From an uncultured Candidatus Saccharibacteria bacterium (lineage in GTDB: Bacteria; Patescibacteriota; Minisyncoccia; Phycocordibacterales; UBA9973): DNA of 64,000 nucleotides. Below are positions 31,560-57,826 of the stretch, piece after piece. Where the stretch lies: contig CAZNJI010000004.1 in NCBI GenBank assembly GCA_964573395.1, positions 27,379 through 91,378 of the forward strand, written 5' to 3'. The notes under the pieces were generated by a model. The model did not search any database. It was not told the DNA's origin and saw only the letters and a list, made by a program, of their open reading frames with translations. Position numbers and translations under genes: made by a program. Numbering within the stretch: position 1 is the stretch's first letter; each line of letters starts with the position of its first letter.

Positions 31560-31944
31560 TGGTGGAGATGGGGGGAATTGAACCCCCGTGCAATAGGGAA
31601 TGACATACAAATCTCCGTGCGCAGCACAACTTGGGCGTTTAAGCGATGCACGAACAAGTCGTGCAAACTGTGCATTGCCGATCCTTTACGTTGTCGTTTT
31701 GCTCTTAAGGAAAAGAGCAGAATCTATTCTGATGTTCTTACACCTCTACCTTTCTATCAGAAATTGAAAGGAGAGACGCCAGCTTGGCTTACGCGAAAGC
31801 TGGAGCGAAGGCCTTACCGAAGTAAGGAGACTTCACCTTAGCGACACTGTTGCCAGATATCGTGTGAACGAAGGTTGCGGGATTACGTCCGTACCCGGCA
31901 CGCATGCATGTCTAATTCTTCTATTGTCGATGCCGATCATCCCC
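31560..31944 (-). ncRNA. ssrA: tmRNA (SsrA), about 385 nt, with encoded CCA
   Basis: Minus-strand 5' end GGGGAUGAUCGGCAUCGAC resembles the tmRNA consensus GGGGCUGAUUCUGGAUUCGAC. The 3' end is GGGGGUUCAAUUCCCCC-CAUCUCC-ACCA, a T-arm plus acceptor pairing with the 5' GGGGAUG, with a G3:U wobble. The internal ORF GCU AAG GUG ... GCG UAA predicts the tag AKVKSPYFGKAFAPAFA. smpB lies just upstream. Confidence 0.85.
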
Positions 31945-32293: not shown

Positions 32294-32731
32294 TTACGCA
32301 TATTCGCGCCGCAGTTCGCGGTCGAGGTCGCGTTTTTTGATTCTGTCGCGTTTGTCAAAGCGCTTCTTTCCGCGAACAATGGCCACTCGGGCCTTAATTC
32401 GCTTGCCTTTGGTATACAGCGAAACAACGACTGCTGTCAAACCTTTTTCTTTCATTCTTCCAGAAATATCAAGCAGTTCTTTTTTATGGAGCAACAGCTT
32501 TCGGGAACGGTACGGGTCGAAGTCTTCTTTGGTATTCCCAGGCTGATGCGGGGGTATGTGGGCGCCAAGTAAAAACAGTTCGCCCGAAAGGAGGGCAACA
32601 TAGGAACCGTCGAGGCTGCCTTTGTGCGTTCGAATCGATTTCGTTTCGGTGCCCAAAAGCTCAATCCCTGCTTCGTAGGTCTCAAGGATTTCATACTCAA
32701 ACGAAACTTTTTTGTTCGACAAAAGCGTCAT
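32294..32731 (-). CDS. smpB: SsrA-binding protein SmpB
   Basis: YEILETYEAGIELLGTEVKSIR...GSYV...LLGAHIPPH...RKLLLHKKEL motifs. Confidence 0.92.
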   Translation of the reverse strand: MTLLSNKKVSFEYEILETYEAGIELLGTETKSIRTHKGSLDGSYVALLSGELFLLGAHIPPHQPGNTKEDFDPYRSRKLLLHKKELLDISGRMKEKGLTAVVVSLYTKGKRIKARVAIVRGKKRFDKRDRIKKRDLDRELRREYA

Positions 32732-32766: not shown

Positions 32767-34539
32767 ATGGAAAAATATAAGACTGAATGGGATTTAGCTC
32801 TCCTCTATAAAAGCGATAATGATCCGCAAATCGAAAAAGACATGCAGACAATTGAAAAAGCATGTGCCGATTTTGAGAAAAAATATCGGAACAAAGACTT
32901 TACCTCAACTCCAGAAAAACTTCGAAAGGCTTTAGAGGATTCAGAAGCGCTCAGTAAAAAAATAATGGGACATAAGCCATGGTGGTATTTCATGCTTCGA
33001 TCTCATATGGACTCAGAAAATAGCGTAGCAAAGGCCATGGTAACACAATTTGAACAGCGTCTTACAAAATCATCCAACAAAATAACTTTTTTTTCACTAA
33101 AAGTTGCTGCGATTCCTAAAAAAGACCAAAAGAAATTTCTCACCAATTCTTTACTTAAGCCATTTAAATATAATCTTGAGCATTCATTTGAAAATGCAAA
33201 ATATAACTTGACTGAGGCGGAAGAAAATATGGCTAGCCTGTTTTCACAAACCAGTTATTCAATGTGGGTAAGCGCACAAGAGAAAAGTTTATTCCAGCAG
33301 TTAATTGATTTTAAAGGAGAAAAGATTCCCGTCTCTAAAGCAAGAGAATTACTCGCCGATCTTCCCAAAAAGGACCGTCATGAGTTATATAAAAAAATCA
33401 CTGACACACTTAAATTTGTTAGTCAATTTGCCGAAGCCGAAATAAACGCAATATGCAATTATAAAAAAGTACTCGATGAAAAGCGTGGATATAAAGAACC
33501 CTACAGTGCTTCGGTTATTGGTAATGAAAATACAGAAAAAGAAATTGAATTGCTCGCATCTGTCGTTACTAAATATTTTTCAATTAGTCATCGGTTTTAT
33601 AAATTACACGCAAAACTTCTTAAAGAAAAAACGATAACCAGAGCAGATGCAAGTGCAAAAATCGGAGAGATAAAAAAGAAATTTAATTTCCCTGAAATGG
33701 TTAAGGTTATTAATAATGCTTTTGAAAAAGTTGGGCCATGGTATGTCGACATGTTCAAAAAATATTTAACCCAAGGACAAATTGATGTATATCCACGGAA
33801 AGGAAAATACTCAGGAGGGTATCACTGGAAAACCGGCAGTAATCCTTCTTTTATTTTACTTAACCATGTTGACAGTATTAGATCAGTAGAAACACTGGGA
33901 CATGAGATGGGACATGCTTTTCATGGCGAGCTGAGTCAATTGCAGCCTCCGCGCTATCAAGATCATCCATCTTCAACGGCAGAAGTGGCGAGTACGTTTT
34001 TTGAACAGATTGTTACCGACGAAATTGAAAATATTCTTTCCGATAAAGAGAAAATTATTATGACTCATAGTAAATTGGCGCGCGATATCCATACTATTTT
34101 TACTCAAATTGCTTGCTTTAATTTTGAAACAGACCTGCATAAAAAAATTAGAGGAAAAGGACAGCTCTCAAAAGATGAAATAGCAGAATTAATGGGAAAA
34201 CACTTAAAGGCATACACTGGCCCAGCTATGAAAATTAATTCTGATGATGGATATATTTTTGTTTCTTGGATGCATCTGAGAATGTTTTTCTATACGTATA
34301 CCTATGCATATGGACATATCATAAGTAAGGCAATGTATGAGTGCTGGAAAAAAGATCGTTCTTTTGAATCAAAAGTAAGAGAATTTCTCAGTGCTGGAAG
34401 TTCAATGAGTCCTCGAGATATCTTTAAAAAAATTGGAATTGACATTAACGATCCAAAGTTTTTTGAGTCAGGACTTAAAGCCATTGATGCTGATATCACT
34501 AAGCTTGAAAAACTAGCAAAGAAAAACGGGCTGATTTAA
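32767..34539 (+). CDS. pepF: Oligoendopeptidase F, M3B family
   Basis: Zinc motif HEMGHAFH plus a downstream Glu; 590 aa. Confidence 0.85.
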   Translation: MEKYKTEWDLALLYKSDNDPQIEKDMQTIEKACADFEKKYRNKDFTSTPEKLRKALEDSEALSKKIMGHKPWWYFMLRSHMDSENSVAKAMVTQFEQRLTKSSNKITFFSLKVAAIPKKDQKKFLTNSLLKPFKYNLEHSFENAKYNLTEAEENMASLFSQTSYSMWVSAQEKSLFQQLIDFKGEKIPVSKARELLADLPKKDRHELYKKITDTLKFVSQFAEAEINAICNYKKVLDEKRGYKEPYSASVIGNENTEKEIELLASVVTKYFSISHRFYKLHAKLLKEKTITRADASAKIGEIKKKFNFPEMVKVINNAFEKVGPWYVDMFKKYLTQGQIDVYPRKGKYSGGYHWKTGSNPSFILLNHVDSIRSVETLGHEMGHAFHGELSQLQPPRYQDHPSSTAEVASTFFEQIVTDEIENILSDKEKIIMTHSKLARDIHTIFTQIACFNFETDLHKKIRGKGQLSKDEIAELMGKHLKAYTGPAMKINSDDGYIFVSWMHLRMFFYTYTYAYGHIISKAMYECWKKDRSFESKVREFLSAGSSMSPRDIFKKIGIDINDPKFFESGLKAIDADITKLEKLAKKNGLI

Positions 34540-34582
34540 GAAAAACCCTGGGCAGTCAAGGTTTTTCGTGTATAATCGCCTT

Positions 34583-36499
34583 ATGCCGGAATTAAAAAAA
34601 CCGAACAAGCAGCCGCTCCCGCCGCGACCAAAGCTCACGTCGTATATTTTCAGCGCGCTTCTTATTTTTGTACTCATCAGCGTGCTCTACTCGAGCATCT
34701 CGAAGCTCGTTCCGAAGAAGCTTGAAACGATCCCGCTCTCCGACGTAGCGGCACTCGTTAACCAAGGTGCAGTAACTGCCATTACTGTTGACGGACAGGA
34801 GCTTGAAATAACGAAAACCGATGGAACGATGGTGAAGTCGAAAAAGGAAGCCGACGCATCGCTGATTGAGACGTTCTCAGCGTATAACGTCGATCAGGCA
34901 AAACTTTCTGCAACCAAAATTACGATTGCCGAAGAAAGCGCTGGATTCTTTTTCCTGGTTACGCTTCTGCCAATTATTCTGCCGGTTGGCTTGATTATTT
35001 TCTTCTTCTGGATGCTCACCCGCCAGGCGAAAGGGGCAGGAATGCAAGCATTCTCATTTGGGCAGTCGAAGGCGCGCGTTACCGACCCCTCTGACAAGCG
35101 CAATCGCGTTACTTTCAAAGACGTTGCCGGAGCAAAAGAAGCAAAAGAGGAATTGAAAGAAATCGTTGATTTCCTGCGGAACCCGAAAAAGTTTCTTGAT
35201 ATCGGTGCGCGCATTCCGAAAGGCGTGCTCTTAACCGGTGCACCAGGAACGGGAAAGACCTTGCTTGCTCGCGCAGTTGCAGGGGAAGCAGGCGTGCCAT
35301 TCTTCCATCTTTCTGGGTCCGAATTTGTTGAAATGTTTGTGGGCGTTGGCGCATCGCGCGTTCGTGATTTGTTCAAAATGGCAAAGCGGGCGGCACCGGC
35401 AATTATTTTCGTAGACGAAATTGATGCAGTTGGCCGCGTGCGCGGTACCGGCTACGGCGGGGGAAACGACGAGCGCGAACAAACGCTCAACCAAATTCTG
35501 GTTGAAATGGATGGCTTCGAGCCCAATGACAAGGTAATCGTGATGGCGGCAACAAACCGCTCAGACGTGCTTGATCCGGCACTGCTTCGCCCGGGCCGAT
35601 TCGACCGGCGTGTCATGCTTGATTTGCCTGACCGAAAAGACCGAGAAGAAATTTTGAGCGTGCACTCAACCAAGAAGCCGCTTGCTGAAGATGTAAATTT
35701 GAAAGTCGTTGCAGAGCGAACTCCGGGATTTTCCGGCGCCGATCTTTTCTCGCTCATGAACGAGGGGGCAATTTTGGCAGCGCGCGAAAACCGAAAGAAG
35801 ATTTCGCAGTACGATTTGATTCGTTCGATCGAAAAAGTCATGCTTGGCCCTGAGCGAAAGAGCCACCTGCTTTCAAAAAAAGAAAAAGAAATCACCGCGT
35901 ACCATGAAGCGGGGCATGCGCTTGTTGCATCAGTTCTTCCACATGCCGATCCGGTGCACAAAGTTTCGATTGTTGCCCGCGGGCGCGCTGGGGGCTACAC
36001 ACTCTCGCTGCCGCTTGAAGAGCGCAAGCTGCAATCTCGAAAAGAATTCTTAGACGATCTGGCAATGAGCTTGGGCGGCTATGCAGCCGAGCAGTTGGTA
36101 TTCGGCGACATTACCACCGGTCCGTCGAATGACCTGCAGGTTGCAACAAACCTGGCGCGGGCGATGGTAACCCGCTGGGGAATGAGCGAAACCATTGGGC
36201 CAATTGCGCTTGAAAATGACGGCGGAAAAGTACTCTTCGGTTCGGGCGTTGACGGAAAAGACTACTCTGAAAAAGTGAGCGCGCTTATTGATGCGGAAGT
36301 AGAGCAAATTATGAAAACCGCACTTGAACGCGCGCAGACGGTATTAACCGAATACCGTAAGGCACTTGATGCTATCTCGTCTAAATTAATGGAGGTTGAA
36401 ACGCTGGAGCAAGATTCGTATGAACAGCTGATTTCCTCATTTGGCATTACACTCAAAAAAGATAAACCGGCAACGGCAGAATTCGGGCCGGAGCAATAA
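34583..36499 (+). CDS. ftsH: ATP-dependent zinc metalloprotease FtsH
   Basis: TM helices; AAA Walker [24 protein letters not shown]; SRH; protease motif HEAGHAL. A TATAAT at 34571-34576 suggests ATG 34583 is the start, possibly on a leaderless mRNA. Confidence 0.95.
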
Positions 36500-36505: not shown

Positions 36506-38095
36506 ATGGTTAAGAAACTTTTTATCACACTGCTATTCTTGAGCGGGATACTTCTCCTCGTTCTCTGGAATGATTCTTTATCCGGCTCAAAAATCCAGTC
36601 GGAACTTTCTGCCATTAAATCCATCTTGGCGGTCGAGGAAAAATCGGAACCGATTACCGTGGCCTTCGTTGGCGACATCATGCTCGATCGCGGCGTGAAG
36701 AGTTCAGTAGTCAAAAATTTCGGCGGCGATTACGGAGCGTTGTTTGCGAATGTTCCCGAGCTGCGGTCGGCAGACATTGCTTTTGCGAATCTTGAAGGAC
36801 CGGTTTCCGATACCGGTAAAAACGTGGGAAGCAAGTATTCGTTCCGGATGGATCCGAACGTATTGCCCATGCTTCGCGAGGCGGGCTTCGACGTGTTCTC
36901 GTTTGCGAACAATCACGTCGGCGATTGGTCGAAAAGTGCGTTCGACCAGACGCTTGAACTTTTACGAGCACAGGGAATACTTTTTGCCGGAGCGGGAAAA
37001 AACTACCAGGAAGCAATTACTCCGCAGATTATAACCGTGCACGATACAAAAATAGGATTCTTAGCATTTTCGGATGTGGGTCCGAATTGGATGGCCGCAA
37101 CCAGCGAGCAGTCGGGGATTCTGCTTGCTACCGACAAACAGTTGCCTGAAATAATTTCTGCTGCAAAGGCCCAAACCGATTATCTGTTCGTTTCCTTCCA
37201 CTGGGGCGTTGAATACGATCCGGCAACTACTAGGCAAAAAACGCTGGCGCGCCAAACGATTGATGCCGGCGCAGACGGCGTTATCGGGCACCATCCGCAC
37301 GTTATTCAGGCAAACGAAACCTATAACGGCAAGCCGATTTTCTACAGCCTCGGCAATTTTATTTTTGATCAGTATTTTTCTCCTGAAACGATGCGCGGCA
37401 TGCTGGCGCTTGTTACCATTTCGCCAGAAGGAGAAATTTCGTCTGAACTATTTACTACCACATTGAGCAAGCAGTATCAGCCAGGGCCGTTTGCGCCATA
37501 TAAAACATCTGATGCGGTGCTGACGAAAAAGGCGGTACCGTTTAGTTGCCCGAAGCCAAAAACAACTTCTCCTAACTATTGGATGATTTCGCTTCCCAAC
37601 AAGGAAATTACACTGAAGGATCACACTCCGAATAATTTGGTGAAAGTTTCAAATAGCGTCACGGGAGAAAACAACATTTGCATTACGAAGGAAACCTATG
37701 CCGCGTATGAGGAGATGCGCAAAGACATGGAAGAAGACGGGGTGTCGGCACATGTGCTTTCGGGGTATCGCGATGCAAAAACACAGGCTGAAAATGTGGC
37801 TGAACGAAAAGAGCTTGCTGCGCCGGTGGGGCAATCAGAACACCACTTAGGAACGGCAATCGATTTCACCTCCGGGACGAAGCCGGTGAAATTTGAAGAA
37901 AGCCCTGAATATCCGTGGATGGTGGAAAATGCCTGGAAGTACGGATTCGTGCAGAGCTATCAGGCAGATAAGGAAGGGAAGACCGGCTTTAAGGGGGAAG
38001 CATGGCACTGGCGCTATGTGGGAGAAGACATTGCCCGAAAATTGCGGCGAAGCACCAAGCCGCTCAATGATTACCTTGAAGATCTAGCCGACTAA
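36506..38095 (+). CDS. Fusion protein: CapA/PGA-type metallophosphatase domain plus LAS/M15B (VanY-like) D-Ala-D-Ala carboxypeptidase domain
   Basis: N-terminal signal/TM. CapA-like motifs (VAFVGDIM, NLEGPV, FANNH, GHHPH). C-terminal M15 motifs (SGYRDAKTQ, EHHLGTAIDF, WHWRYVG). Confidence 0.7.
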   Translation: MVKKLFITLLFLSGILLLVLWNDSLSGSKIQSELSAIKSILAVEEKSEPITVAFVGDIMLDRGVKSSVVKNFGGDYGALFANVPELRSADIAFANLEGPVSDTGKNVGSKYSFRMDPNVLPMLREAGFDVFSFANNHVGDWSKSAFDQTLELLRAQGILFAGAGKNYQEAITPQIITVHDTKIGFLAFSDVGPNWMAATSEQSGILLATDKQLPEIISAAKAQTDYLFVSFHWGVEYDPATTRQKTLARQTIDAGADGVIGHHPHVIQANETYNGKPIFYSLGNFIFDQYFSPETMRGMLALVTISPEGEISSELFTTTLSKQYQPGPFAPYKTSDAVLTKKAVPFSCPKPKTTSPNYWMISLPNKEITLKDHTPNNLVKVSNSVTGENNICITKETYAAYEEMRKDMEEDGVSAHVLSGYRDAKTQAENVAERKELAAPVGQSEHHLGTAIDFTSGTKPVKFEESPEYPWMVENAWKYGFVQSYQADKEGKTGFKGEAWHWRYVGEDIARKLRRSTKPLNDYLEDLAD

Positions 38096-38099
38096 TTTT

Positions 38100-38576
38100 T
38101 TACGAAGCGGTTGTTTTGTCTTCTCCTCGCTCGGAAAGCTCGCCTTCAGCAAGTTCGAGCAGTTCATAATGCCAGTTGATTCCTTCGTGGGCAAAAGTAA
38201 GGAGCGTTTCATTATTCAGCCCCTCGGCAACTCCCCGGATGACTGCCCAGTGCACGATTGCCGCTCCTTCGAAAAATCCGCTCCACTCGAAGAGTTCGGT
38301 GGTGTTGTCCCACTCTTCTCCAATATAGAGATCGCGCATTTTTCCAAGCTTCTCTTTGGTTTTTTCTGCTTTCGCCAGTACTATTTCTTGCACTCCGGCA
38401 TCGGCTGCAATTTTTAAGATGCCGTCGCCATGTAGGCGGAACTTCTCTTCCATGTCGGCAAGCGGGGCTTCTCCCAGGGCAGAGGCGAGGGCATTCCTTC
38501 CTTTCTCGATCGTTTCAAGGCCTACTTTATTAAAGGCGAGGATTTCGCCAAGTTTTTTCGCAGCAAATTCATTCAT
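38100..38576 (-). CDS. Hypothetical protein, possibly a ferritin-like helical bundle (158 aa)
   Basis: Helical acidic protein; no confident motif. Confidence 0.35.
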   Translation of the reverse strand: MNEFAAKKLGEILAFNKVGLETIEKGRNALASALGEAPLADMEEKFRLHGDGILKIAADAGVQEIVLAKAEKTKEKLGKMRDLYIGEEWDNTTELFEWSGFFEGAAIVHWAVIRGVAEGLNNETLLTFAHEGINWHYELLELAEGELSERGEDKTTAS

Positions 38577-38644
38577 ATATAAAGTAAAACATGAAGTTGT
38601 GAATTATTCCAACCTTGGCTAGAATCAGTGTCAGTTCTTTCGAT

Positions 38645-38718
38645 GGGAGTATAGCTCAGTTGGTTAGAGCATCGAGCTTATACCTCGAGGGTCGATGGTT
38701 CGAGTCCATCTACTCCCA
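38645..38718 (+). tRNA. tRNA-Ile with anticodon UAU (reads AUA); CCA not encoded
   Basis: Cloverleaf folded by hand. Acceptor GGGAGTA/TACTCCC; D-stem GCTC/GAGC. Anticodon stem TCGAG/CTCGA with loop CTTATAC, so anticodon TAT. T-arm GATGG-TTCGAGT-CCATC. Discriminator A. Confidence 0.8.
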
Positions 38719-38829
38719 CCCGTTTGGATGCATTATCTGAAGGCTTACCTGACCTTTATCCACAAGCAGGATTCTGGCATCTGGTTTCTCTGTGGACTTT
38801 CGTATCTCTACTGCGATACAATAAAGGGC

Positions 38830-41800
38830 ATGAACAAATATATAGGGGCACTATTATCAGCAGGTTTTTTCTTGTTAATCATTGGTTTCGGCGTCGTTCC
38901 AGCTCACGCGCAAACAACTACGCCTTTTACTACTAATCTCTCGATCGGCTCAACCGGCCCCGAAGTACTCAAGCTGCAGCAGTGGCTCAATGCAAACGGC
39001 TTCGTTGTTGCCCAATCCGGGCCTGGTTCTCCTGGGAACGAAACAAGCAGCTACGGACGGGCAACTGCGAATGCGGTGCTGAAATTCCAAGAAGCGCACT
39101 TCTCGCAGATTCTTGCCCCGCTTGGCATCTCAAAAGGAACTGGCAGATTTGCCGCCGCAACCAGAAACTACCTGAATTCTCTTTTGGGAGGAATGGTGTT
39201 AGGGGAAACAACTGAATCGTTCCTGGCATCTGCCGGCACTCCTGCAGGAATTGAAGACAATACCTCTTCGTTGGAGATCGGCATGAAGTTCACTCCGAAT
39301 GTTTCTGGAAAGATTACCGGCGTTCGCTTCTATAAAGCGTCAAACAACTACGGCACGCACACCGGAACGCTCTGGGGTTCGAACGGCTCGCGCCTTGCTA
39401 CTGGTACCTTTACCAACGAAACGAGCTCTGGCTGGCAAACCCTTACCTTCGATGCTCCTGTTTCTGTTACTGCCGGCACAACGTACACTGCCTCGTACTT
39501 TGCGCCACAGGGAAGATACTCGTTTACCTGTAACTACTTCACTTCTCCTCGAACCGTGGGTAATATTTCTACTCCAACATCTGCCGGCGTTTACCGATAC
39601 GGATCATCCTCTGCATTTCCAAGCCAGACCTTTAATTACTGCAACTACTGGGTAGACGTGGTTTTTGTAACCGGATCAACTGATCCGGCTCCTACGCCAA
39701 CACCTACCCCGACACCAACACCTACTCCAACTCCGACACCTTCAGGAACGGTATCTCTGTGGTCAAATAGCACCACGCCAACGCTCGTTACCGACATTCA
39801 GGCATACCCGGTTGAACTCGGAATAAAATTCAGCACTACCGTTCCGGGAACGATTACCGGCATTAAATACTATAAAGGTCCGCAGAATACCGGCACTCAC
39901 ACCGGAACGCTCTGGAGCAGTAATGGATCAAAACTTGCAAGCGTCACGTTCACGAACGAAACCAGCTCGGGCTGGCAGACGGCGCTCTTCTCGAATCCGG
40001 TATCAATTCAGGCAAACACGACATATGTCGCTTCCTACTTTACCCCGGTCGGATTCTTCTCAGTTGACATGAATTATTTCACCGCTTCCCGATCGTTTAA
40101 TACCTACTTCAATACTTCGGTTGGAGCTGGCGTATTTAAATACGGATCCGCAGGTTTCCCAACCACGACCCTCTATTCTAATTACTGGGTAGACGTGCTC
40201 TTCGTGCCAAGCACTGGCGGAACAACTCCACCTCCACCACCTCCGCCAAGTAATGACACCAGTTCTCCAACCGTTTCATTGACTGCTCCGGGAAACCGAT
40301 CGACGGTAAGCAACACGGTTACCGTTTCAGCGAGCGCCTCTGACAATGTGGGGGTTGCCGGCGTACAGTTCCGAGTGGATGGCAACAATATTGGTGGAGA
40401 AGATACGGTTGCACCGTACGTAATAGATTGGGATACCCGAAGCATTGCGAATGGACGGCATTACCTAACCGCGGTTGCGCGCGATGCAGCAGGAAATACC
40501 CGAACCTCAAGCCAGCGCCGCGTTACGGTAAGTAACACCACCACGACTCCTCCATCTAGTGATACGACTGCACCAACCGTTTCAATTACCGCTCCGGCAA
40601 ATGGCGCAACAGTTTCTGGAACGACTACCGTTTCAGCGAGCGCCTCTGATAATATGGGCGTAGTAGGCGTACAGTTCAAGTTAAATGGTACGAACCTCGG
40701 CCTTGAAGACACCAGTTCGCCATACTCAACTTCATGGAACACGACCGGTGCGGCAAACGGAACTTATACCCTTACCGCAACTGCGCGCGATGCGGCAGGA
40801 AATACCAGAACGACAAGTGCTGTTTCGATTACCGTGAATAACGTTGTGACGCCGCCAGCTGACACAACCAATCCAAGCGTCTCATTTTCTGCTCCAGCAA
40901 GCGGTGCAACGGTAAGCCTTGCGACTACCGTCTCGGCAAACGCTTCCGACAATGTCGGTGTTGCGAGCGTCCAGTTCTTGGTTGATGGCGTTAGTATCGG
41001 AGAAGACACTACTGCGCCATATTCAGTTTCATGGATTACCACGACAACTACGAATGGCTCGCATACCCTTTCGGCAATTGCTCGCGATGCGGCAGGAAAC
41101 ACCGCAACCGCAACTCGATCGGTAACGGTTAACAATGCAACTGCTTCGAACGATACGACTCCGCCGGTCGTTACCATGCTAACGCCGATTAATAACAGCA
41201 CCGTATCGGGTACTGCTCTCGTTACCGCTTCGGCAACCGATAACATTGGCGTGGTAGGCGTACAGTTCAAACTAAACGGCCAGAATCTTGGTTCTGAAGA
41301 CACTACGCTTCCATATGAATACTCATGGAACACCAGCGACTATGCGAATGGTTCATACACGCTTACCGCAACCGCTCGCGATGCGGCAGGAAACACGAGA
41401 ACAGCGCCTGGATTCGGAATCAACGTATCGAACGGAACTGTACCGCCGCCAACCGGAGGGAGCAGTTTTACCTTTACCCAAATTCCTTACTCAGATCCTG
41501 ACATCATCGCGCCAGGACGCGGAGCGGAACAGTGGCACAATAGTACTGCGCGAATTCCGAATCCAACCGAGAGCCAATCACGAACAACCGAGAACTCGCT
41601 TGACGTGTACTACCGATTCGAATGGGCAAGAATTGAAGGGGCAACCCAAGGTTCATACAACTGGACGTACTTCGATAACTTAATACGAGGTGCAATTAAC
41701 AACGGACAGAAATTCTCGTTCGGTATCATGACTCACTACAGCGACGGCGGATATGTTTCATATGACGGTGGTACCTCTTCTTATCCACAGTATCTGCACA

Positions 41801-42924
41801 ACATGATGCAAGCTGAGAGTCCGAAAGATTGGCGCAGCTCTAACGGCGTGTGGGTGCCAAACTGGAATAGTCCAAGCTACCTCAACCGATTAAGAGCGCT
41901 GCACGAAGCACTCTATGCACACATCATGAATACCTCTTACACTCCTACGACAGGACCGCGTGCAGGACAAAGCATTCCATTCAAAGATGCTATCTATGCA
42001 ATCGATATCCGCGGATTCGGTAACTGGGGCGAATGGCACACCGGAGACATCGTTGACTGGAATGCACACCCAGCAGGAACCGCGCCAACTATCGCAACAC
42101 TCAAAACGATTATCGATCACCACACACAAGTATTTAAAGATTGGCCGCTTGTATTCATGGTTGCTGGCTATGATGGTGGTGCTACTGGCATTTCACTCTT
42201 CCCTCCATACCCAGAAGTTGCGTACTATGCGCTTACGGCAAAGAACGCCTGGGGTGACGTTGGATTCCGCCGCGACCAATGGGGTGCAACTGACAGCTAC
42301 CTCCATACGCTCATGGCAGGAAACAATAAAACATACAATGGATCAGTGCCATTTAAGACACTCATTCTCAACAAGTACAAGACGGCACCGATTACTGGCG
42401 AGCCGATGCCTGCAAGCCTCGACATGGCTGACCTTGAAAACCAGGTAAATACCTACCATGCTACCTCGTTTGGAAATGGAAACTACGGAGCATACCCAAG
42501 TTCACAAACAACACGAGACAGAATTCGAGCAGCGTTCAAACGGGCTGGATACCGACTGATCCTTGAAGGAGGAAGCGTTGGAAACATCAGTCGCGGTTCG
42601 GCATTTTCGATCAGCTTAGACTGGAAAAACGTTGGAATTGCGCCAACATACGAAAACTGGGTTCCGACGTACGAGCTGAAGAATTCAAGCGGTACCGTTG
42701 TTTGGTCAGGAACTTCAAGCTTTAATCCGAAACTCTTCCTTCCGGAAAGCGGCACGAAGAAGGTAACGGACAGCTTCGTTGTTCCAACATCAGTACCGGC
42801 AGGAACCTATACGCTTTCGTTGAAAGTGAAGGATCCAGCAAACTACCGCCAGCCGCTTCCGCTCGCTATCCAGGGAAGACAGTCTGATGGAAGCTACGTC
42901 TTGAAGAGCGTAACCGTGCAGTAG
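38830..42924 (+). CDS. Large secreted multi-domain surface protein (1364 aa): PG-binding domain, two paralogous beta domains, PT linker, five Ig-like repeats, C-terminal glycoside-hydrolase-like domain
   Basis: Signal peptide MNKYIGALLSAGFFLLIIGFGVVPAHA. PG_binding_1-like segment (GSTGPEVLKLQQWLNANGF...ATANAVLKFQ). Two homologous ~150-aa domains (GVRFYKASNNYGTHTGTLW / GIKYYKGPQNTGTHTGTLW). (PT)n linker. Five ~100-aa repeats (SASASDNVGV.GVQF..DG...G.EDT..PY...W.T....NG.H.L.A.ARDAAGNT). C-terminal region with NWGEWH. Confidence 0.7.
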   Translation: MNKYIGALLSAGFFLLIIGFGVVPAHAQTTTPFTTNLSIGSTGPEVLKLQQWLNANGFVVAQSGPGSPGNETSSYGRATANAVLKFQEAHFSQILAPLGISKGTGRFAAATRNYLNSLLGGMVLGETTESFLASAGTPAGIEDNTSSLEIGMKFTPNVSGKITGVRFYKASNNYGTHTGTLWGSNGSRLATGTFTNETSSGWQTLTFDAPVSVTAGTTYTASYFAPQGRYSFTCNYFTSPRTVGNISTPTSAGVYRYGSSSAFPSQTFNYCNYWVDVVFVTGSTDPAPTPTPTPTPTPTPTPTPSGTVSLWSNSTTPTLVTDIQAYPVELGIKFSTTVPGTITGIKYYKGPQNTGTHTGTLWSSNGSKLASVTFTNETSSGWQTALFSNPVSIQANTTYVASYFTPVGFFSVDMNYFTASRSFNTYFNTSVGAGVFKYGSAGFPTTTLYSNYWVDVLFVPSTGGTTPPPPPPPSNDTSSPTVSLTAPGNRSTVSNTVTVSASASDNVGVAGVQFRVDGNNIGGEDTVAPYVIDWDTRSIANGRHYLTAVARDAAGNTRTSSQRRVTVSNTTTTPPSSDTTAPTVSITAPANGATVSGTTTVSASASDNMGVVGVQFKLNGTNLGLEDTSSPYSTSWNTTGAANGTYTLTATARDAAGNTRTTSAVSITVNNVVTPPADTTNPSVSFSAPASGATVSLATTVSANASDNVGVASVQFLVDGVSIGEDTTAPYSVSWITTTTTNGSHTLSAIARDAAGNTATATRSVTVNNATASNDTTPPVVTMLTPINNSTVSGTALVTASATDNIGVVGVQFKLNGQNLGSEDTTLPYEYSWNTSDYANGSYTLTATARDAAGNTRTAPGFGINVSNGTVPPPTGGSSFTFTQIPYSDPDIIAPGRGAEQWHNSTARIPNPTESQSRTTENSLDVYYRFEWARIEGATQGSYNWTYFDNLIRGAINNGQKFSFGIMTHYSDGGYVSYDGGTSSYPQYLHNMMQAESPKDWRSSNGVWVPNWNSPSYLNRLRALHEALYAHIMNTSYTPTTGPRAGQSIPFKDAIYAIDIRGFGNWGEWHTGDIVDWNAHPAGTAPTIATLKTIIDHHTQVFKDWPLVFMVAGYDGGATGISLFPPYPEVAYYALTAKNAWGDVGFRRDQWGATDSYLHTLMAGNNKTYNGSVPFKTLILNKYKTAPITGEPMPASLDMADLENQVNTYHATSFGNGNYGAYPSSQTTRDRIRAAFKRAGYRLILEGGSVGNISRGSAFSISLDWKNVGIAPTYENWVPTYELKNSSGTVVWSGTSSFNPKLFLPESGTKKVTDSFVVPTSVPAGTYTLSLKVKDPANYRQPLPLAIQGRQSDGSYVLKSVTVQ
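40255..41440 (+). repeat. Five tandem ~300-bp coding repeats (Ig-like domain array) inside the 1364-aa gene
   Basis: Repeated protein motif seen five times; the DNA repeats are diverged. Confidence 0.7.
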
Positions 42925-43559: not shown

Positions 43560-45743
43560 CTATTCAAAATGCACCTGCGCGAGCATTCCTGCTTTTTCTT
43601 TCAAGAGGGGATAAGAATCTAAAGCAACATCTTCTGAAACTATTTTCTGTGCTTCGAGACGCGCCGCCTCAACGAGTTTGAGGTTTTTTATTGCATCCAT
43701 GCCGATATCGGTAATGCCCCACTGCTTGAGGCCGGTCAGCTCGCCGGTGCCGCGCAGTTCGAGATCATATTCGGCAAGTTCAAAGCCGTTCTTCGCTTGA
43801 GTAAATAACCGAAGCCGCTCGATGGTCTTTTCCGTTTTAATATCGGCAAAAAGGTAGCAATATGCCTGCAGGTTGCTCCGAGCGATGCGTCCGCGGAGCT
43901 GGTGCAGCTGCGCCAATCCGAACCGTTCAGCCCCTTCGATAATCATGAGCGTTGCATTCGGCACGTTCACGCCCACTTCGACGACGGAAGTTGCCACCAG
44001 AATGGCAATGGTTCCCTCATGAAACGCACGCATCACAGATTCTTTTTTCTGCTTGGTCATTTTGCTGTGCAGGATGCCAATGTCGTATTCGGGGAAGACA
44101 TGTTCCTTTAACCGCCGTGCTTCTTCAGTCACTGATTTCACCTGCAGCTTCACTGCTGTTTCAGGATCGGCTTCGGCTATGCGCGGACAGATAACGTACA
44201 ACTGCCGTCCACTCTGCAGTTCTTGCTGTATCCTTTCATAGATCTGGTTTCGGTTTTCCGGAATGACTATTTCGGTGGCAACCGGTTTCCGTCCAAGCGG
44301 CATTTCATCGAGGAGCGAAAGATCAAGATCACCATACATGGTAAGCGCGAGCGTTCGAGGAATCGGCGTTGCGGTCATCGATAACAGGTGCGGAAAATGC
44401 TCGTCTTTTTTTGCAATTGCTTTGCGTTGATTTAATCCAAAACGGTGCTGCTCGTCGATGATGGCAAGGGCAAGATGTTTGAACTTTAGCGATTTCTGAA
44501 TCAGCGCGTGCGTGCCGATGACCATCGGAATTTCTCCATTCGCTATCCATTTTGCAAGCTGTGCTCGCGAGATGGCGGTCCATGGTGTAGCTGCACTTGC
44601 TACCTTGCTCGGGAATTTGCGGCAACCACTGCCGGTGATGAGCGCAATTGAAATGCCGCTTCCTTTAAAATAGTTAATAAAGGATTCGAAATGCTGGGTC
44701 GCCAGGATTTCAGTGGGAGCCATGTAGGCAACTTGCAAATTGCCGTACGTTTGGCGTTTTCCTGCCACCGACGGCCGATTGGTAACCGTTACGTAGGCTG
44801 CCGCTGCGGCAACCGCCGTTTTTCCCGATCCAACATCGCCTTCAAGCAGCCTCGACATCGGGACGGTTTTTTCGAGGTCACTTCCAATTTGTAGAATGGC
44901 GCGCTCCTGCCCCTTGGTGAGCGGAAACGGGAAGCGATCCGTGAATTGCTTCAACGCTTTCTGATCGATTGTTATTGCATATGAAATATTTTTCTTTAAG
45001 AGTTCTCGTTCTTGTAGCCGCGCGAGCTGCAAGAAAAAAATTTCTTCGAACGAAAATCGTTTCCGGGCAACGAGGGCATCGGCGCGCATTTTCGGCTGGT
45101 GAATCCAAATGAAGGCACTCTTCAGCGTTGGCAGGCTGTACTGATTCAGTATGTTCTCCGGCAGGTATTCCGGAAATTCATTCAGCAGGCGGAGCGTTTT
45201 TTTAACGGTGTGCTCGATCCAGTTCGATGAAATCCCTTTTGTTTCTCCATAGACTGGCTGGAGCGCACCTTTTGCATCTTGGCCGAAGATGCTGTCGTGC
45301 GAATCGATCGGCAATATTTTTACCTTGTTGATGGAAGGGTTGGCAAGCGTTAAACCGCTGCGCTGCCGGCTCACTTTTCCGGAGAGCGATACGGTCGTTC
45401 CTGCGGGGTACATTTTTGCAATGTAGGGCTGATTGAACCACACGGCGCGCAGCGTGCCGCTCGGATCCTCAATGATTCCTTCGGTCATCGGGGTTTTCGT
45501 TTGGTGGGTTTTTTTCGTCTCCATCCTTTTCAGGATTCCGTATACGGTAACTTGCTCTTCGGCTGTAATGCTGCTTATTGATCTGAATTCTGCAGCGTCA
45601 GCGTACCGTGCAGGGAAGTAGCGGAGCAGATCTTCAAGGGTCTTCAGTTTCAGCCGAATGAGCCCGTCGCGGACGGGTTTTTCAAGCCGGAAGTGCTGCT
45701 CGATTGTATCGGAGAGATGTGCCATGCAAAAACACGCCGGCAA
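43560..45743 (-). CDS. recG: ATP-dependent DNA helicase RecG
   Basis: Wedge/OB N-terminal region; helicase motif I GDVGSGKTAVAAAAA; DEQH box IIDEQHRFG; motif VI QLHQLRGRIAR. Confidence 0.93.
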   Translation of the reverse strand: MPACFCMAHLSDTIEQHFRLEKPVRDGLIRLKLKTLEDLLRYFPARYADAAEFRSISSITAEEQVTVYGILKRMETKKTHQTKTPMTEGIIEDPSGTLRAVWFNQPYIAKMYPAGTTVSLSGKVSRQRSGLTLANPSINKVKILPIDSHDSIFGQDAKGALQPVYGETKGISSNWIEHTVKKTLRLLNEFPEYLPENILNQYSLPTLKSAFIWIHQPKMRADALVARKRFSFEEIFFLQLARLQERELLKKNISYAITIDQKALKQFTDRFPFPLTKGQERAILQIGSDLEKTVPMSRLLEGDVGSGKTAVAAAAAYVTVTNRPSVAGKRQTYGNLQVAYMAPTEILATQHFESFINYFKGSGISIALITGSGCRKFPSKVASAATPWTAISRAQLAKWIANGEIPMVIGTHALIQKSLKFKHLALAIIDEQHRFGLNQRKAIAKKDEHFPHLLSMTATPIPRTLALTMYGDLDLSLLDEMPLGRKPVATEIVIPENRNQIYERIQQELQSGRQLYVICPRIAEADPETAVKLQVKSVTEEARRLKEHVFPEYDIGILHSKMTKQKKESVMRAFHEGTIAILVATSVVEVGVNVPNATLMIIEGAERFGLAQLHQLRGRIARSNLQAYCYLFADIKTEKTIERLRLFTQAKNGFELAEYDLELRGTGELTGLKQWGITDIGMDAIKNLKLVEAARLEAQKIVSEDVALDSYPLLKEKAGMLAQVHFE

Positions 45744-47491: not shown

Positions 47492-47581
47492 GGAGACGTG
47501 GCTGAGCTGGTCGAAAGCGCCTCACTGCTAACGAGGTAAGCCCGTTAAACGGCTTCGAGGGTTCGAATCCCTCCGTCTCCG
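47492..47581 (+). tRNA. tRNA-Ser(GCU) with a long variable arm; CCA not encoded
   Basis: Acceptor GGAGACG/CGTCTCC; D-arm GCTG-AGCTGGTCGAA-AGCG; anticodon loop CTGCTAA, so anticodon GCT; variable arm TAAGCCCGTTAAACGGCTTC; T-arm GAGGG-TTCGAAT-CCCTC; discriminator G. Confidence 0.85.
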
Positions 47582-48006
47582 CAAAGTCTTGAGCGAAGTG
47601 AAAGCTTTGCAGAGACGAGCAAAACAGGGTTTTGCGTGGGGGATTCGAACGACGGAGGCAATTGAGTATTCAAGAGAATACGAAGCCGAGTCGGTGCCCA
47701 GACTAACATTTTCGGGCGAGAAAATTTAAGTCGCGGGCGAATCCTCCGTCTCCGCCAACCCCCGACCCCCATGTTGGACACCTTCGATTTCCAACGCTAT
47801 CGCTGCCTTCCACCACAGGGGTTGGCGACAATCGCACAATGAGGCGCGATTGCGGAGACGGTGACATACTTGAGTATGTCACGGGAGGGATTCGAAAAGC
47901 GCAGCGATGTTTTGCGAGCCAGCAAAACCGCGAGCTGGGGTCGAGAAATTTTAAGAGCGACGGCGAATAAAATATTCGTGACCGAATATTCCCCCGTCTC
48001 CGCCAG
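47582..48006. repeat. Array of direct and inverted copies of the tRNA-Ser 3' end (att-scar-like repeats)
   Basis: Direct copies GGCGAATCCTCCGTCTCCGCCA at 47737-47758 and CGAATATTCCCCCGTCTCCGCCA at 47983-48006, each preceded by CGAGAAA(A)TTT(T)AAG. Minus-strand copy at 47855-47903, where GCGGAGACGG-TGACATACTTGAGTATGTCAC-GGGAGGGATTCGAA reverse-complements to the T-loop and acceptor end with a 22-bp palindrome inserted. Scrambled inverted fragment TGGGGGATTCGAACGACGGAGG at 47637-47660. Confidence 0.8.
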
Positions 48007-48996: not shown

Positions 48997-51900
48997 ATGA
49001 GACGAATCCGCTCCGGCATATTTCGGCGTTACCGAATGACCATTCTCGGTTTGCTTGGAGCATTCCTTTTTTCGGCCATCATCTCATTTGCCGCTCCACC
49101 CAGCTCACCATACACTCCCGGAGAAACGCTTGATCCAACCTGTGCGCCGGGAGACGCGAATTGTTACGTTGAAAGTTCAAGCGGAGATTCTTTTTATACC
49201 GATGATGGCGCGCTAACTGGAAACAGAGCAATCGATTTAGATGGCAACACACTTAGTTTTACTGGCGGAACGGTTTTAATCGGCGGAACACCAACGTTTT
49301 CCGGCTTCTCAACAAATGGCGGGCTCCTTTATACAAACGGCTCCGGCGTCGTCTCACAAACAGGCGCAGGCACTGCCAACCAAGTGCTCCACGGCGGAAT
49401 CAATCCGACATACTCAGCAGTCTCGCTTTCTGCTGATGTTTCTGGTGATCTGCCGTTTGCAAACCTCGCCCAGATTACCGGCCTTTCAGTATTAGGTGTT
49501 ACCGGAACCAGCACCGCTGATGTTGCGGCAATTACCGGTACGGCAAATCAGGTGCTTCGCATTAATGCAGGCGGAACAGCGCTTGGTTTTGGCACGATAG
49601 CAAATGCAGGGCTTGCAAACTCCTCAATTAGTTTCGCGACCGGAACTTCAGGTACTAACGTGAACTGGTCTTCATCTCCCGTTTCTCTGGGCGGAACGGC
49701 AACCTTAAATATCCCCGATGCTAGTGCTTCGGCGCGAGGCTTGGTAACAACAACCGGCACGCAAACCTTTGCTGGAGACAAAATCTTTACCAGTGAAGTG
49801 GCAGTTGGCACCGATTTGGTAGACGGCCGATTCCAAGTAAGTTCTGCGGAGGGAAATTACCTGCGCATAGACAACGACAACGGAATTTACGGAATAGGAG
49901 ATCTCAGCGGCCTCTATAATGGCAGTTACTTTCAGATTGATGATGCTAATCACGAGATAGACCTTTGGGTTACCGGAGAAGTAACTGAAAATAATTTTGA
50001 AATTGGTGATGGGTATGGAGGTTTTTCTAGCTACTATCAAAATGGAACCGTAACAGCATCAAGCGAGTATTATTTGGAGGCACTTGGCGGAATTACTATT
50101 AGTTATGATTATGAAGATACGAATACAACTCAAGTTATAGATTCCGGCCTCCGTTTTGATGGAAATTTTATTGAGCTAAAAACAGAAGAAAATTATGATA
50201 ACGGAGCCGAAGTATCTTATGCTGGTCTTATGCTCAATCAAGCTTGGGCAGAGCTTGGTGCAAGTTATGAATTTAATAATTACGACTATGATGCAACGAT
50301 CCAAACCTCAAATGGTGGTACCGAGCTCTATTCTTCTCGAGAGTACAATGGAGAAACTGAAGCATTTTCAGAACTGAGCCTCAGACCTGATATTTCAGAA
50401 ATGATAACTCCTCGGTTAGGTATTGTGGGCACCTATGCCTATAACGACACGCTTCCGTTTCAAGACGCTCAGGTTGCAATTCTTGGCGGATTGGGGCCGG
50501 AAGAGATTACGAACGGCACTTTCACCGGCAATGCCAATGGATGGGTAACGGGAGGAGATGACGATACGCTTCCTTCTGATAACTGGGCGTATGGCACCAA
50601 TAATGCACAGCATACTCCCGGGGAAGATGTTGTTCTTCGCCAAGATGGTGAGCTGGTATACGGAGAAACATATAAAGCTCAATTTACTATTGGCGGCACA
50701 ACCGGTTGGGTACAGGTATGTTTGGGTGAGAACGGCGACTGTGCAGAGTTTGATGCAGGAGACGGTTCGGTAACTTTTACGGGAAGTTGGGAGGCGCTGA
50801 CCAGCAGTAAGATACTTTTTTACCCATCATCCGATTTCGACGGCACGATCGACAATGTGTCGGTAAAGCGCGTGTTCTCTAACCGGCATGCTGCGCTTGA
50901 TGTGCAAGGGAAAACCAACCTGCAGAATTTGGCGATATCAGGCACCGCCCTTGGCGATTTATATGGTGCCGAATTGATAACGAACGGAACCTTTACGGCT
51001 AATACAGATGGCTGGCAAACGGAAGATCCAGGGGGCGGTAATCCGGAAGCGCTTGATTCAAAAGGTTGGGCATATGATAACCGGGGATGGGTTGAATTTG
51101 ATTCGGGTACGCAACAATCAAATTACCTGACCCAAGTCATAGATTTGACTGAAGGCGCCCAATACCGTGTTTCGATAAAGGTACAAGATGGAGACGGAAG
51201 AGTATACGTAGCGCTTGGAGGGGATAATGATGCAAATTATATCGAGCTTAGTGGAGAGAGTGGTATTACTACTGTAACGCTTACTGCTGGCGCGGGTGAT
51301 TTTCTCTGGATTGTTCCTGACACGGACAATAACGGCGATTGGTTTAGTGGTTTTATTGATGAAGTATCCGTAAAAGAGGTTACCGGAGAAGCGGCGCTGA
51401 GTGTTACTGGCAACACCGTGCTACATAGTTTGGCCGGAAACGGGAGCGGTTTTGTTTCGGTTGATAACGATGGCGTGCTTTCGTGGAGTGCAGGCGGAGC
51501 CGGCGGGGTGGGGGGTAGCAATACGCAGCTGCAATTCAACGACGATGGCAACATGGCTGGCGCAACTGATGTTCTCTATAGTAAAGGAGCTTCCGGTAGT
51601 TCAGGCGATTCATTGGGCGACGAAGAAATAACTAATGGCTCTGTTACTGGAAATACAAATGGCTGGACGGCCATTAATGGCGACCCACTCCCAGCGAACA
51701 ACTGGTCTTATGGCAGTAACAACCTTAATTACGACCCAAACGGAGGAAACCCAGTTGCACAACTAGGAGAACTTGTGGAAGGAGCAACCTACAGAATTAC
51801 ATTTACAGTAACTGGAACTGCTGGAACAATAAGCGTAAGACTCGATGGTGACATTGATGCTGAATATGCTTATAACGCCGGCACAGTAACACTAGATAAA

Positions 51901-55434: not shown

Positions 55435-56562
55435 ATGGAAAAACTGATTTCGGCAATGAAAAGAATGTTTGCCTTCGGAGGAGGCGATAATAATGTCGCC
55501 ATTGGCATTGATATTGGCACCTCTTCAATCAAAGTAGTGCAAATCAAAAAAGAGGGAGGCCGGGCAGTGCTCGATACCTATGGTGCGCTCGCGCTTGGCC
55601 CGTATGCAGACGAAAAGGGAATGATCGGCCAGGTAACGAATCTCTCTCCCGAGCAGCTTGCCCGGGCGCTGAAGGACGTACTGCGGGAAACGAACATTAC
55701 GAGCAAGAATGCGGTGCTCGGCATTCCATCCATTTCATGCATCATTTTCATCATCCAGCTGCCGGCAGTCATCAATGAATCCGAATTTGCGACCGTCATT
55801 CCAAACGAAGCGAAGAAATTCATTCCGGTTCCGCTTTCTGACGTCACGCTCGATTGGTACGTGATTCCGCGCCGCGAAGACTCGAGTACGCAGGTTGACG
55901 CGCTTGCCGCCAGCGGCGGAGAGCTGAAAGTTTCCATTCTGGTCGTCGCGACGCTCAATGATACGCTGGTGAAATACACGAGCACGCTCCAAAAAACAGG
56001 GCTGCCGGTCGATGCGCTTGAGATTGACGTTTTTTCAAGCATCCGCTCGATCCTCTCACGGGAACTTTCGCCGGTACTGCTCATGGACATTGGCGCATCG
56101 AAAACAAAGCTCGCAATCGTAGAGCATGGCATCGTTGAGACGTTCCATTTGGTAAACAAAGGAGGGCAGGACATTACCCTTGGCATTGCGCGGAGCTTGG
56201 AAATTCCGTTCGATCGGGCTGAAGTAATTAAAAAAGAGCACGGGCTGGTGCCGGGAACGGATTATCCGAAGCTTCCCGAGATCATCAAGGGCCAACTGGC
56301 AACCATTATTACGGAGACGAACACCATTTTGCTCGCGTACGAGAAGCGCTATAACAAAAATGTCTCGAAGGTCATCTTTACGGGGGGCGGCGCGCTGACT
56401 CGCGGCATCTTTGAATATGCGCGAGAGCAGTTTTCAGCAGAAGTAGAGCTGGCAAATCCGTTCTCGAAGGTTGATGCGCCGGTATTTTTGCAAGGCGTGC
56501 TCAAAGCAACTGGCCCTGAGTTTGCCATTGCCATCGGATTGGCGCTGAAGCGGCTGCAATAA
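55435..56562 (+). CDS. pilM: Type IV pilus assembly protein PilM (actin-like ATPase)
   Basis: VAIGIDIGTSSIKVVQIK start and actin/FtsA-like fold motifs; followed by pilN/O-like genes. Confidence 0.85.
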   Translation: MEKLISAMKRMFAFGGGDNNVAIGIDIGTSSIKVVQIKKEGGRAVLDTYGALALGPYADEKGMIGQVTNLSPEQLARALKDVLRETNITSKNAVLGIPSISCIIFIIQLPAVINESEFATVIPNEAKKFIPVPLSDVTLDWYVIPRREDSSTQVDALAASGGELKVSILVVATLNDTLVKYTSTLQKTGLPVDALEIDVFSSIRSILSRELSPVLLMDIGASKTKLAIVEHGIVETFHLVNKGGQDITLGIARSLEIPFDRAEVIKKEHGLVPGTDYPKLPEIIKGQLATIITETNTILLAYEKRYNKNVSKVIFTGGGALTRGIFEYAREQFSAEVELANPFSKVDAPVFLQGVLKATGPEFAIAIGLALKRLQ

Positions 56563-56617
56563 GTGCAAAACTTTGTTTGTTTGCGTTTTCTCCGTGTTAT
56601 ACTTTTATGAGCAGCGC

Positions 56618-57274: not shown

Positions 57275-57825
57275 TGCGATTTTTCACTTTCATTATTATT
57301 CTTGGCGCAAGCGTTGCAACCATCGTGCTGTTTGTGAATCCGCGTTATGCCCACATTAAAGAGCTCCGCGCGCAGGTGCGTTCCTACGACACGGCGTTGC
57401 AAAATGCCGAAGAACTTAAACGTGAGCGCGAAGAACTGCAGGCAAAGTACAATGGCATTCGGGTAGAAGACATCCATGCAGTTGAAACGGTGCTTCCTGA
57501 TAACGTTGATAACATACGGCTCATTATTCAAATGAATTCAATCGCGCTCAAAACGGGCATGTCATCGCTTCGAGACGTAAACTACAGCACCGAAGCAAAA
57601 ACGAATGTGGAAAAAAGCAAGGAGAGCGAACTCTACGGAGAATTTGAAACGAGTTTTTCCACTACCGGATCCTATAAGAATTTCTTGAACTTCATTGCTT
57701 CGCTTGAGCAGAACCTTCGCTTGGTAGACATTACGAAAGTGGCGTTCGAGGTGGTTGAAGATCCGACGAAGGTCGATAACAATAAATATACCGTTACGCT
57801 CAAAACGTATTGGCTGAAAAATTAA
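57271..57825 (+). CDS. pilO: PilO-like pilus assembly protein
   Basis: TM helix plus coiled-coil (IKELRAQVRSYDTALQNAEELKREREELQ); 4-bp overlap with the previous gene. Confidence 0.6.
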   Translation: MMRFFTFIIILGASVATIVLFVNPRYAHIKELRAQVRSYDTALQNAEELKREREELQAKYNGIRVEDIHAVETVLPDNVDNIRLIIQMNSIALKTGMSSLRDVNYSTEAKTNVEKSKESELYGEFETSFSTTGSYKNFLNFIASLEQNLRLVDITKVAFEVVEDPTKVDNNKYTVTLKTYWLKN

Positions 57826-57826
57826 T

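Follow-up and report, generated by a model that had tools for sequence, protein, structure and literature searches.

TilS is generally treated as essential, and its gene is among the commonly used bacterial marker genes; in the canonical lysidine system, C34 of tRNA-Ile2(CAU) is modified to lysidine, AUA is read as isoleucine and AUG is excluded. The tilS gene is present in ~98% of annotated bacterial genomes (PMC12514573), and surveys have listed bacteria with a tRNA-Ile(UAU) as 19 species (PMC4013482) or 17 genomes (PMC8450103). Among the described systems, Mycoplasma mobile has no tilS and possesses a tRNA-Ile2 with an unmodified UAU anticodon; its isoleucyl-tRNA synthetase (IleRS) carries Arg865 where TilS-bearing species have Trp, its ribosome disfavours the reading of AUG, and the UAU tRNA is charged poorly by IleRS of the E. 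coli type (PMC3575796). Bifidobacterium and Neorickettsia, also without tilS, combine a UAU tRNA with an IleRS of the eukaryote/archaeal type (IleRS2; PMC3575796). In a suppressor of a tilS deletion of Bacillus subtilis, tRNA-Ile1 carries the change G34U (PMC3919564). This suppressor shows that a cell can do without TilS after one change of an anticodon to UAU, although it is a laboratory mutant of tRNA-Ile1(GAU), unlike the natural tRNA of the CPR described below. Outside the bacteria, the ultra-small or episymbiotic Nanoarchaeum equitans and Korarchaeum cryptofilum possess a tRNA-Ile3(UAU) that replaces a modified-C system based on agmatidine (PMC8450103); these organisms, however, belong to another domain of life and the enzyme that was lost there is TiaS, not TilS. 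We found no literature that ties CPR, Patescibacteria or Parcubacteria to lysidine, tilS or the Ile anticodon.

The stretch of DNA analyzed here (64 kb; hereafter the window) derives from a Paceibacteria-type Patescibacterium (CPR). Among the matches listed, locus L114, from a MAG titled Candidatus Paceibacterota bacterium, has both the nearest FtsH, with 77% identity, and the nearest tRNA, with 2 differences. The window is gene-dense, with a GC content of 42-51%, and contains EF-Tu, an S10/spc-type ribosomal-protein region, IF3, truB, a type IV pilus cluster and giant surface proteins. An earlier note, made from the sequence by hand folding, had claimed a canonical cloverleaf with the loop CTTATAC and the anticodon UAU at 38645-38718, and both the coordinates and the fold turned out to be exact. 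ARAGORN reports a tRNA-Ile with anticodon (tat) at 38644-38721 on the + strand, with no other folding of the anticodon loop and no call of Met or another identity. The Rfam model RF00005 is matched over its whole length at 38645-38718 with 74.8 bits and E=1.5e-14, every helix position being paired and non-canonical pairs numbering 0. The gene (38645..38718, + strand, 74 nt; ARAGORN and Rfam RF00005) has the unbroken sequence GGGAGTATAGCTCAGTTGGTTAGAGCATCGAGCTTATACCTCGAGGGTCGATGGTTCGAGTCCATCTACTCCCA, which divides by element into GGGAGTA TA GCTC AGTTGGTTA GAGC A TCGAG CTTATAC CTCGA GGGTC GATGG TTCGAGT CCATC TACTCCC A. The anticodon T34-A35-T36 lies at 38679-38681 inside the 7-nt loop CTTATAC, with U at position 33 and A at position 37, and the discriminator is A73 (38718). 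A73, U12-A23 and the D-arm are typical identity features of bacterial tRNA-Ile, and all are present in the window tRNA. Single-sequence MFE folding did not exactly reproduce the T-arm; the structural evidence on which we rely is the covariance-model alignment together with covariation, rather than such folding. The covariance model of the UAU family (R1) scores the window copy with 96.2 bits. The identity that had been claimed, a tRNA-Ile(UAU) that reads AUA directly, is thus supported by both programs, and we consider the gene confirmed as a real and canonical tRNA-Ile(UAU).

The gene lies in a block that is conserved in relatives in the order tmRNA-smpB-ftsH-tRNA(UAU)-recG, with recG as the usual convergent neighbour. 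Among the loci listed, the tRNA is located downstream of ftsH in all UAU loci that contain ftsH (75/75; median gap 119 nt). Furthermore, recG is its downstream neighbour in at least 59 related loci, smpB adjoins ftsH on its upstream side in at least 37 and a tmRNA occurs near the UAU tRNA in many relatives. In the window, the tmRNA gene (ssrA; 31560..31944, - strand; Rfam RF00023, 103 bits, E=4e-39) is followed by smpB (32294..32731, - strand; NCBIfam SmpB equivalog, 162.5 bits), by pepF (32767-34539), which sits between smpB and ftsH, and by ftsH itself (34568..36499, + strand; Pfam Peptidase_M41 and AAA), our syntenic anchor. Then come a PGA_cap/VanY protein (36506-38095, + strand), a 158-aa ORF without family (38100-38576, - strand), tRNA-Ile(UAU), a 1364-aa DUF4082/Big_7 protein (38830-42924) and recG (43560..45743, - strand; Pfam RecG_wedge/DEAD/Helicase_C), which is convergent with ftsH. 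Beyond recG, a response-regulator/histidine-kinase pair precedes tRNA-Ser(GCU) (47492..47582, + strand; ARAGORN and Rfam), which recurs in the syntenic block in many related loci; this gene and the tmRNA are the only further RNA genes in the window according to ARAGORN and Rfam. The window departs from the conserved block by lineage-specific insertions only. The insertion between ftsH and the tRNA (36506..38576; Pfam) is, among the loci listed, common only to the closest relatives, e.g., L114, and the same arrangement is present on the Logan contigs L001 and L002. Look-ups of the exact 158-aa, PilC and EF-Tu proteins of the window yielded two short Logan contigs or no match. The DUF4082/Big_7 protein displaces recG from the tRNA. 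With its 2 DUF4082 domains, 4 Big_7 domains and one peptidoglycan-binding domain, it represents an insertion between tRNA and recG in comparison with most relatives. The tmRNA of the window was seen by Rfam but not by ARAGORN, although ARAGORN reports tmRNAs in many related loci; smpB lies just upstream of it on the same strand.

These insertions (PGA_cap/VanY protein, 158-aa ORF and giant surface protein) flank the tRNA in the window, and no CCA is encoded in the gene, ACCC coming next in the DNA. Both observations would fit a non-functional or stray gene, i.e., a pseudogene, another tRNA altered by a recent point mutation, or the cargo of a mobile element or phage. However, most members of the family likewise lack an encoded CCA, and the invariable position 3' of ftsH is not that of a stray gene. 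The earlier note had considered that the gene might score as a pseudogene, which was not seen: the Rfam score compares with a gathering score of 29 for RF00005, and since ARAGORN and Rfam both give Ile(TAT) with a high score, the gene is not a pseudogene. A plausible promoter is also present; a sigma-70-like consensus match, TTGTGA-17-TAGAAT (38597..38625, + strand), ends ~20 nt 5' of the tRNA and is a candidate for its own promoter, with 9/12 consensus matches in a region that holds 3 such sites vs 0.8 expected in a consensus scan.

The family to which the tRNA belongs also argues against a stray gene. In a scan of species-representative genomes with a pattern made from the body of the window tRNA, in which position 34 was left free, T34 (TAT) was found in at least 112 genomes, nearly all of them Patescibacteria/CPR MAGs. 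Among the matches listed, the holders of T34 are Paceibacterota/Parcubacteria, Nomura-, Taylor-, Kaiser-, Adler-, Uhr- and Doudnabacteria and many MAGs labelled 'uncultured Candidatus Saccharibacteria', and C34 (CAT) occurs in 8, all non-CPR. ARAGORN assigns Ile(tat) to the CPR TAT loci with a complete gene. Six more UAU tRNAs were reached via FtsH, independently of the pattern, and their position 38 is C, U or A; the pattern scan, therefore, underestimates the family. When 78 distinct 74-nt members were aligned, with 31 columns fixed by the search pattern and the varying columns of the acceptor, anticodon stem and T-stem free, all pair cells held standard pairs (1638/1638; 100%). Compensatory double changes occur at 14 of the 21 pairs of these 78 members, and the covariation score amounts to 0.542 vs 0.139 for shuffles and <=0.13 for slid partners. 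A chance match is excluded by the Rfam E-value in combination with the co-varying stems of homologues in more than 118 other loci, and the UAU tRNA is under selection. Perfect pairing and abundant compensatory changes across the family, together with the conserved position, effectively refute a pseudogene or stray gene, a reading that we regard as highly improbable.

Two further observations on the family can be made. The first acceptor pair is C1-G72, an unusual pair among bacterial elongator tRNAs, in 38 of the 78 distinct members (alignment A1, loci L003-L122, columns 1 and 73); the window copy has G1-C72. A descent of the UAU tRNA from tRNA-Ile2 is not demonstrable: the family covariance model gives 79-87 bits to CPR tRNA-Val and 70-87 bits to tilS-adjacent CAU tRNAs.

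The usage of AUA, which the earlier note had proposed to examine, reveals that the codon is really used. ATA represents 172 of the 18,571 codons in the ORFs of the window (9.3 per 1000; 13% of Ile codons) and drops to 5.1 per 1000 in the ribosomal-protein and EF-Tu genes. A UAU tRNA charged with Met or another amino acid would imply that AUA does not stand for isoleucine, as is the case in many mitochondria. The orthologue residues at 12 ATA codons of the window (in ftsH, recG and smpB) are, however, I (56%), V (19%) and L (14%), 89% in total, with M at 2%, a profile that is the same as that at ATT/ATC positions; at ATG positions M reaches 59%. These residues rule out a reassignment, and the A73, U12-A23 and D-arm of the tRNA are as in bacterial tRNA-Ile. 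We consider another identity of this tRNA barely conceivable: AUA is isoleucine here. In ftsH, the ATA share of the Ile codons is 23% in UAU-type CPR vs 20% in TilS-type CPR, which is no clear difference.

The immediate upstream neighbour of ftsH is tilS in many bacteria. Domain searches detected neither ileS nor tilS in the 64-kb window, for tilS also with an E. coli TilS probe and a CPR-tuned HMM, and we found neither tRNA-Ile2(CAU) nor tilS in the window or in the syntenic region of relatives. The same probe and HMM revealed no TilS in the 118 UAU loci examined (0.95 Mb). The HMM does match ~47 non-UAU loci, and the E. coli probe identified TilS beside the tRNA in 4/8 of the non-CPR CAU loci listed, two of which are ordered tRNA(CAU)-tilS-ftsH. 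A second approach started from 80 FtsH neighbourhoods from metagenomes, with 46-71% identity to the window FtsH. Those FtsH-seeded loci for which both flanks are available comprise 19 with tilS and without UAU tRNA, 5 with UAU tRNA and without tilS, 10 with neither and 0 with both (Fisher p=0.011). The 58 UAU-linked FtsH constitute one NJ clade without any tilS-linked member. The site upstream of ftsH that is occupied by tilS in TilS-bearing CPR holds smpB or pepF here. The CPR thus show two mutually exclusive locus types, since UAU loci lack tilS and tilS loci lack the UAU tRNA. In the UAU-type locus L050, one initiator-like and one elongator-like CAU tRNA adjoin the UAU tRNA. An IleRS beside the tRNA was considered for L019 and L015, but the class-I aaRS fragments there are ValRS, adjoining tRNA-Val.

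Saccharimonadia, Kazan, JAEDAM01 and some Gracilibacteria retain the canonical TilS and tRNA-Ile2(CAU). In Southlakia epibionticum, a cultured Saccharibacterium, TilS (SEML1_0730) is encoded immediately upstream of FtsH (SEML1_0729) and was rated essential in 2/3 analyses, and the genome has three 'tRNA-Met' genes and one tRNA-Ile (PMC10633639 supplement). The metagenome locus L132 likewise shows three tRNA(CAU), then tilS-ftsH-murJ, and the named relatives of its 327-aa TilS are from the Patescibacteria group, Kazan and Gracilibacteria. All four L132-like TilS loci (4/4) contain DivIC, three tRNA(CAU), tilS-ftsH-murJ and, farther on, lepA-hrcA-grpE-dnaK, and the UAU tRNA is absent from them. 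No Parcubacteria-type name is present among the named holders of CPR-type TilS, for which organism names are sparse; we treat this as supporting rather than decisive evidence. A protein search with a mixed TilS alignment yielded mostly Gastranaerophilales-like matches and is uninformative on CPR. The UAU locus resembles that of the lysidine system in its ftsH neighbourhood, and the task, to read AUA as Ile and to exclude AUG, would be the same in either case, but the anticodon is TAT instead of CAT, so that a C34 for modification is missing, and the locus lacks TilS, the arrangement being smpB-ftsH-tRNA(UAU)-recG here vs three tRNA(CAU)-tilS-ftsH-murJ in the lysidine lineages.

The tilS loci show some peculiarities of their own. 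In L132 (5376-9080) and L205-L210, all from TilS-bearing Patescibacteria, the three CAU tRNAs are packed just upstream of tilS-ftsH-murJ, beside the divergent DivIC. They are presumably those for fMet, Met and Ile2, which would bring the genes for AUG and AUA decoding together in one compact cluster; the three tRNA-Met genes of Southlakia are likewise near SEML1_0730. In non-CPR or unplaced bacteria (L013:4603-7759, L029, L143, L153 and L193), a tRNA(CAU) is found directly upstream of tilS-ftsH, which points to a shared location, and perhaps a shared transcript, of tRNA-Ile2 and the enzyme that modifies it. The tilS adjoining a tRNA(CAU) in L054 (286-1861, - strand) is split into overlapping ORFs (286-1230 and 1199-1861), which may mean that the gene is frameshifted, that it is a pseudogene or that the sequence is in error.

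The tRNA content of complete genomes is consistent with the locus types. Supplementary Table 2 of a study of tRNA introns (PMC13011429, 2026) lists, for 95 complete Patescibacteria genomes, the number of tRNA genes for each amino acid. The table gives amino-acid names, without anticodons. We tallied the tRNAscan-SE 'Ile' genes against the ARAGORN CAU tRNAs. All 50 genomes with 1 tRNA-Ile have at least three CAU tRNAs and 0 have two or fewer, whereas 40 of the 45 genomes with at least two tRNA-Ile have two or fewer CAU tRNAs and 5 have three or more (Fisher p ~1e-21 for the 95). The text of the study mentions neither UAU nor TilS, and it reports group I introns in some CAU tRNAs of Patescibacteria, which escape detection (PMC13011429). 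The two-Ile state characterizes Dojkabacteria (7/7), Microgenomatia (12/12), ABY1 (4/4), Doudnabacteria (1/1), WWE3 (1/1), UBA1384 (1/1), Paceibacteria (15/20) and Gracilibacteria (2/5). The state with one tRNA-Ile and three CAU tRNAs is found in Saccharimonadia (34/36), JAEDAM01 (7/7), Kazan (1/1), Gracilibacteria (3/5) and Paceibacteria (5/20). In the loci that we examined, TAT was seen in Paceibacteria-, ABY1- and Doudnabacteria-type lineages, and the second tRNA-Ile of the remaining classes is presumably TAT as well. Because the two-Ile genomes have fewer CAU tRNAs, the extra tRNA-Ile replaces the third CAU tRNA, and a genome that has no tRNA-Ile2(CAU) leaves TilS without a substrate. The five genomes with a second tRNA-Ile as well as three CAU tRNAs (2 ABY1, 1 Paceibacteria and 2 Saccharimonadia) may be in a transitional or redundant state, or they may have duplicates of tRNA-Ile(GAU).

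Lactobacillus casei, Cyanothece PCC 7424 and Ferrimonas balearica possess a tRNA-Ile(TAT) too, but have kept tilS, and a redundant decoding of AUA by both systems has been proposed for L. casei, Cyanothece PCC 7424 and Ferrimonas (PMC3575796). The same could hold here if TilS and tRNA-Ile2(CAU) were encoded elsewhere in the genome, of which our data cover the 64-kb window, and the five complete genomes with three CAU tRNAs among the 45 with a second tRNA-Ile would be in line with this. However, in 14 of the 15 complete Paceibacteria with a second tRNA-Ile the CAU tRNAs number only two, so that the counts at the level of the lineage, in contrast to the dual-system bacteria, indicate the loss of tRNA-Ile2(CAU). 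Also at odds with two decoders are the 0.95 Mb of UAU-type loci without tilS, the tight linkage of tilS to ftsH in TilS-bearing CPR, at a site that is smpB or pepF here, and the fact that the named holders of CPR-type TilS include no Parcubacteria-type organism. We, therefore, regard redundant decoding in this organism as unlikely, and we infer from its relatives that tilS is absent from its genome.

It is likely, in our view, that the window gene is a functional minor tRNA-Ile by which AUA is decoded as isoleucine without lysidine, that it replaces TilS and tRNA-Ile2(CAU), and that it is most likely the sole decoder of AUA. The tRNA would be transcribed from its own promoter, receive its CCA after transcription and be charged by IleRS; its U34 would then pair with the A of AUA codons, so that AUA would be read as Ile without lysidine, by the mechanism that has been demonstrated for Mycoplasma mobile. 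The IleRS of this organism presumably accepts the UAU anticodon, which would call for an IleRS1 with Arg instead of the residue equivalent to Trp905 of E. coli, or for a type-2 IleRS. In the cultured, Paceibacteria-type Minisyncoccus archaeiphilus, IleRS is annotated with PF19302 (DUF5915), which we take to be a mark of the C-terminus of type-2 IleRS. Misreading of AUG would be prevented by a modification of U34, by the tRNA body or by the ribosome.

As in M. mobile, a genomically encoded UAU would read AUA in a reduced genome as a minor Ile isoacceptor, and the tilS and tRNA-Ile(CAU) that M. mobile lacks are probably both absent here. Unlike M. mobile, the Patescibacteria do not belong to the Mollicutes, and the trait extends across a whole radiation, not a single species. 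For M. mobile, moreover, the unmodified U34, the Arg865 of IleRS and the contribution of the ribosome to the rejection of AUG have been shown experimentally. With Bifidobacterium and Neorickettsia it shares the occurrence of a UAU tRNA in bacteria that lack TilS, as this organism probably does.

The window gene represents a known mechanism, TilS-independent decoding of AUA by tRNA-Ile(UAU), in a new lineage, and within its own lineage it is ordinary. The earlier note had called such a tRNA uncommon, which holds for bacteria in the literature surveys (17-19 genomes) but not for its own lineage, where a second tRNA-Ile is found in 45/95 complete Patescibacteria and 15/20 Paceibacteria. The UAU strategy looks like a common state of the CPR rather than an oddity. 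What appears to be undescribed is the replacement of the lysidine system at the class level across about half of the complete CPR genomes. It seems reasonably probable that a large part of the Patescibacteria, i.e., most Paceibacteria, Microgenomatia, Dojkabacteria, ABY1, Doudnabacteria, WWE3 and UBA1384, or about half of the complete CPR genomes, dropped TilS and tRNA-Ile2(CAU) and reads AUA by a UAU tRNA. With similar, moderate confidence we propose that this swap can be seen at a single ancestral locus, as three tRNA(CAU)-tilS-ftsH-murJ vs smpB-ftsH-tRNA(UAU)-recG. If true, this clade would exceed every other TilS-less clade of bacteria in size by a wide margin; it is apparently undescribed in the searchable literature. 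Where tilS is used as a marker gene, its absence from CPR MAGs would then be real biology and not incompleteness, and the UAU lineages would escape the target range of TilS-targeted antibacterials. It would also pose the question of how organisms with reduced ribosomes and a small set of modification enzymes keep U34 off AUG. The CPR would offer a natural system for the old question of how U34 in the split AUN box avoids AUG, and, since cultured Patescibacteria exist, this is testable in any strain shown to carry the UAU tRNA.

A few minor observations concern the taxonomic labels and the remainder of the window. The loci L003, L019, L072, L079 and L106 have a CPR-type tRNA and synteny, yet are titled 'uncultured Gammaproteobacteria' or 'archaeon', and many loci titled 'uncultured Candidatus Saccharibacteria' show a non-Saccharimonadia locus type; the taxonomy in such record titles is probably imprecise or mistaken. 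In the window, the S10 operon is broken up, rpsJ (3551-3931) and rplC (7671-8273) flanking a 911-aa LCAT/lipase-like ORF (4009-6744) and a 143-aa ORF without family. A 1912-aa giant surface-type protein (48997-54735) combines a CshA adhesin repeat with a Peptidase_S74 'chaperone of endosialidase' domain, which is typical of phage tail fibres. The type IV pilus cluster (55435-63680) consists of pilM, pilO-like, pilB, a receiver domain, pilT, pilC and a pilin with N-methylation motif; such clusters are typical of CPR episymbionts.
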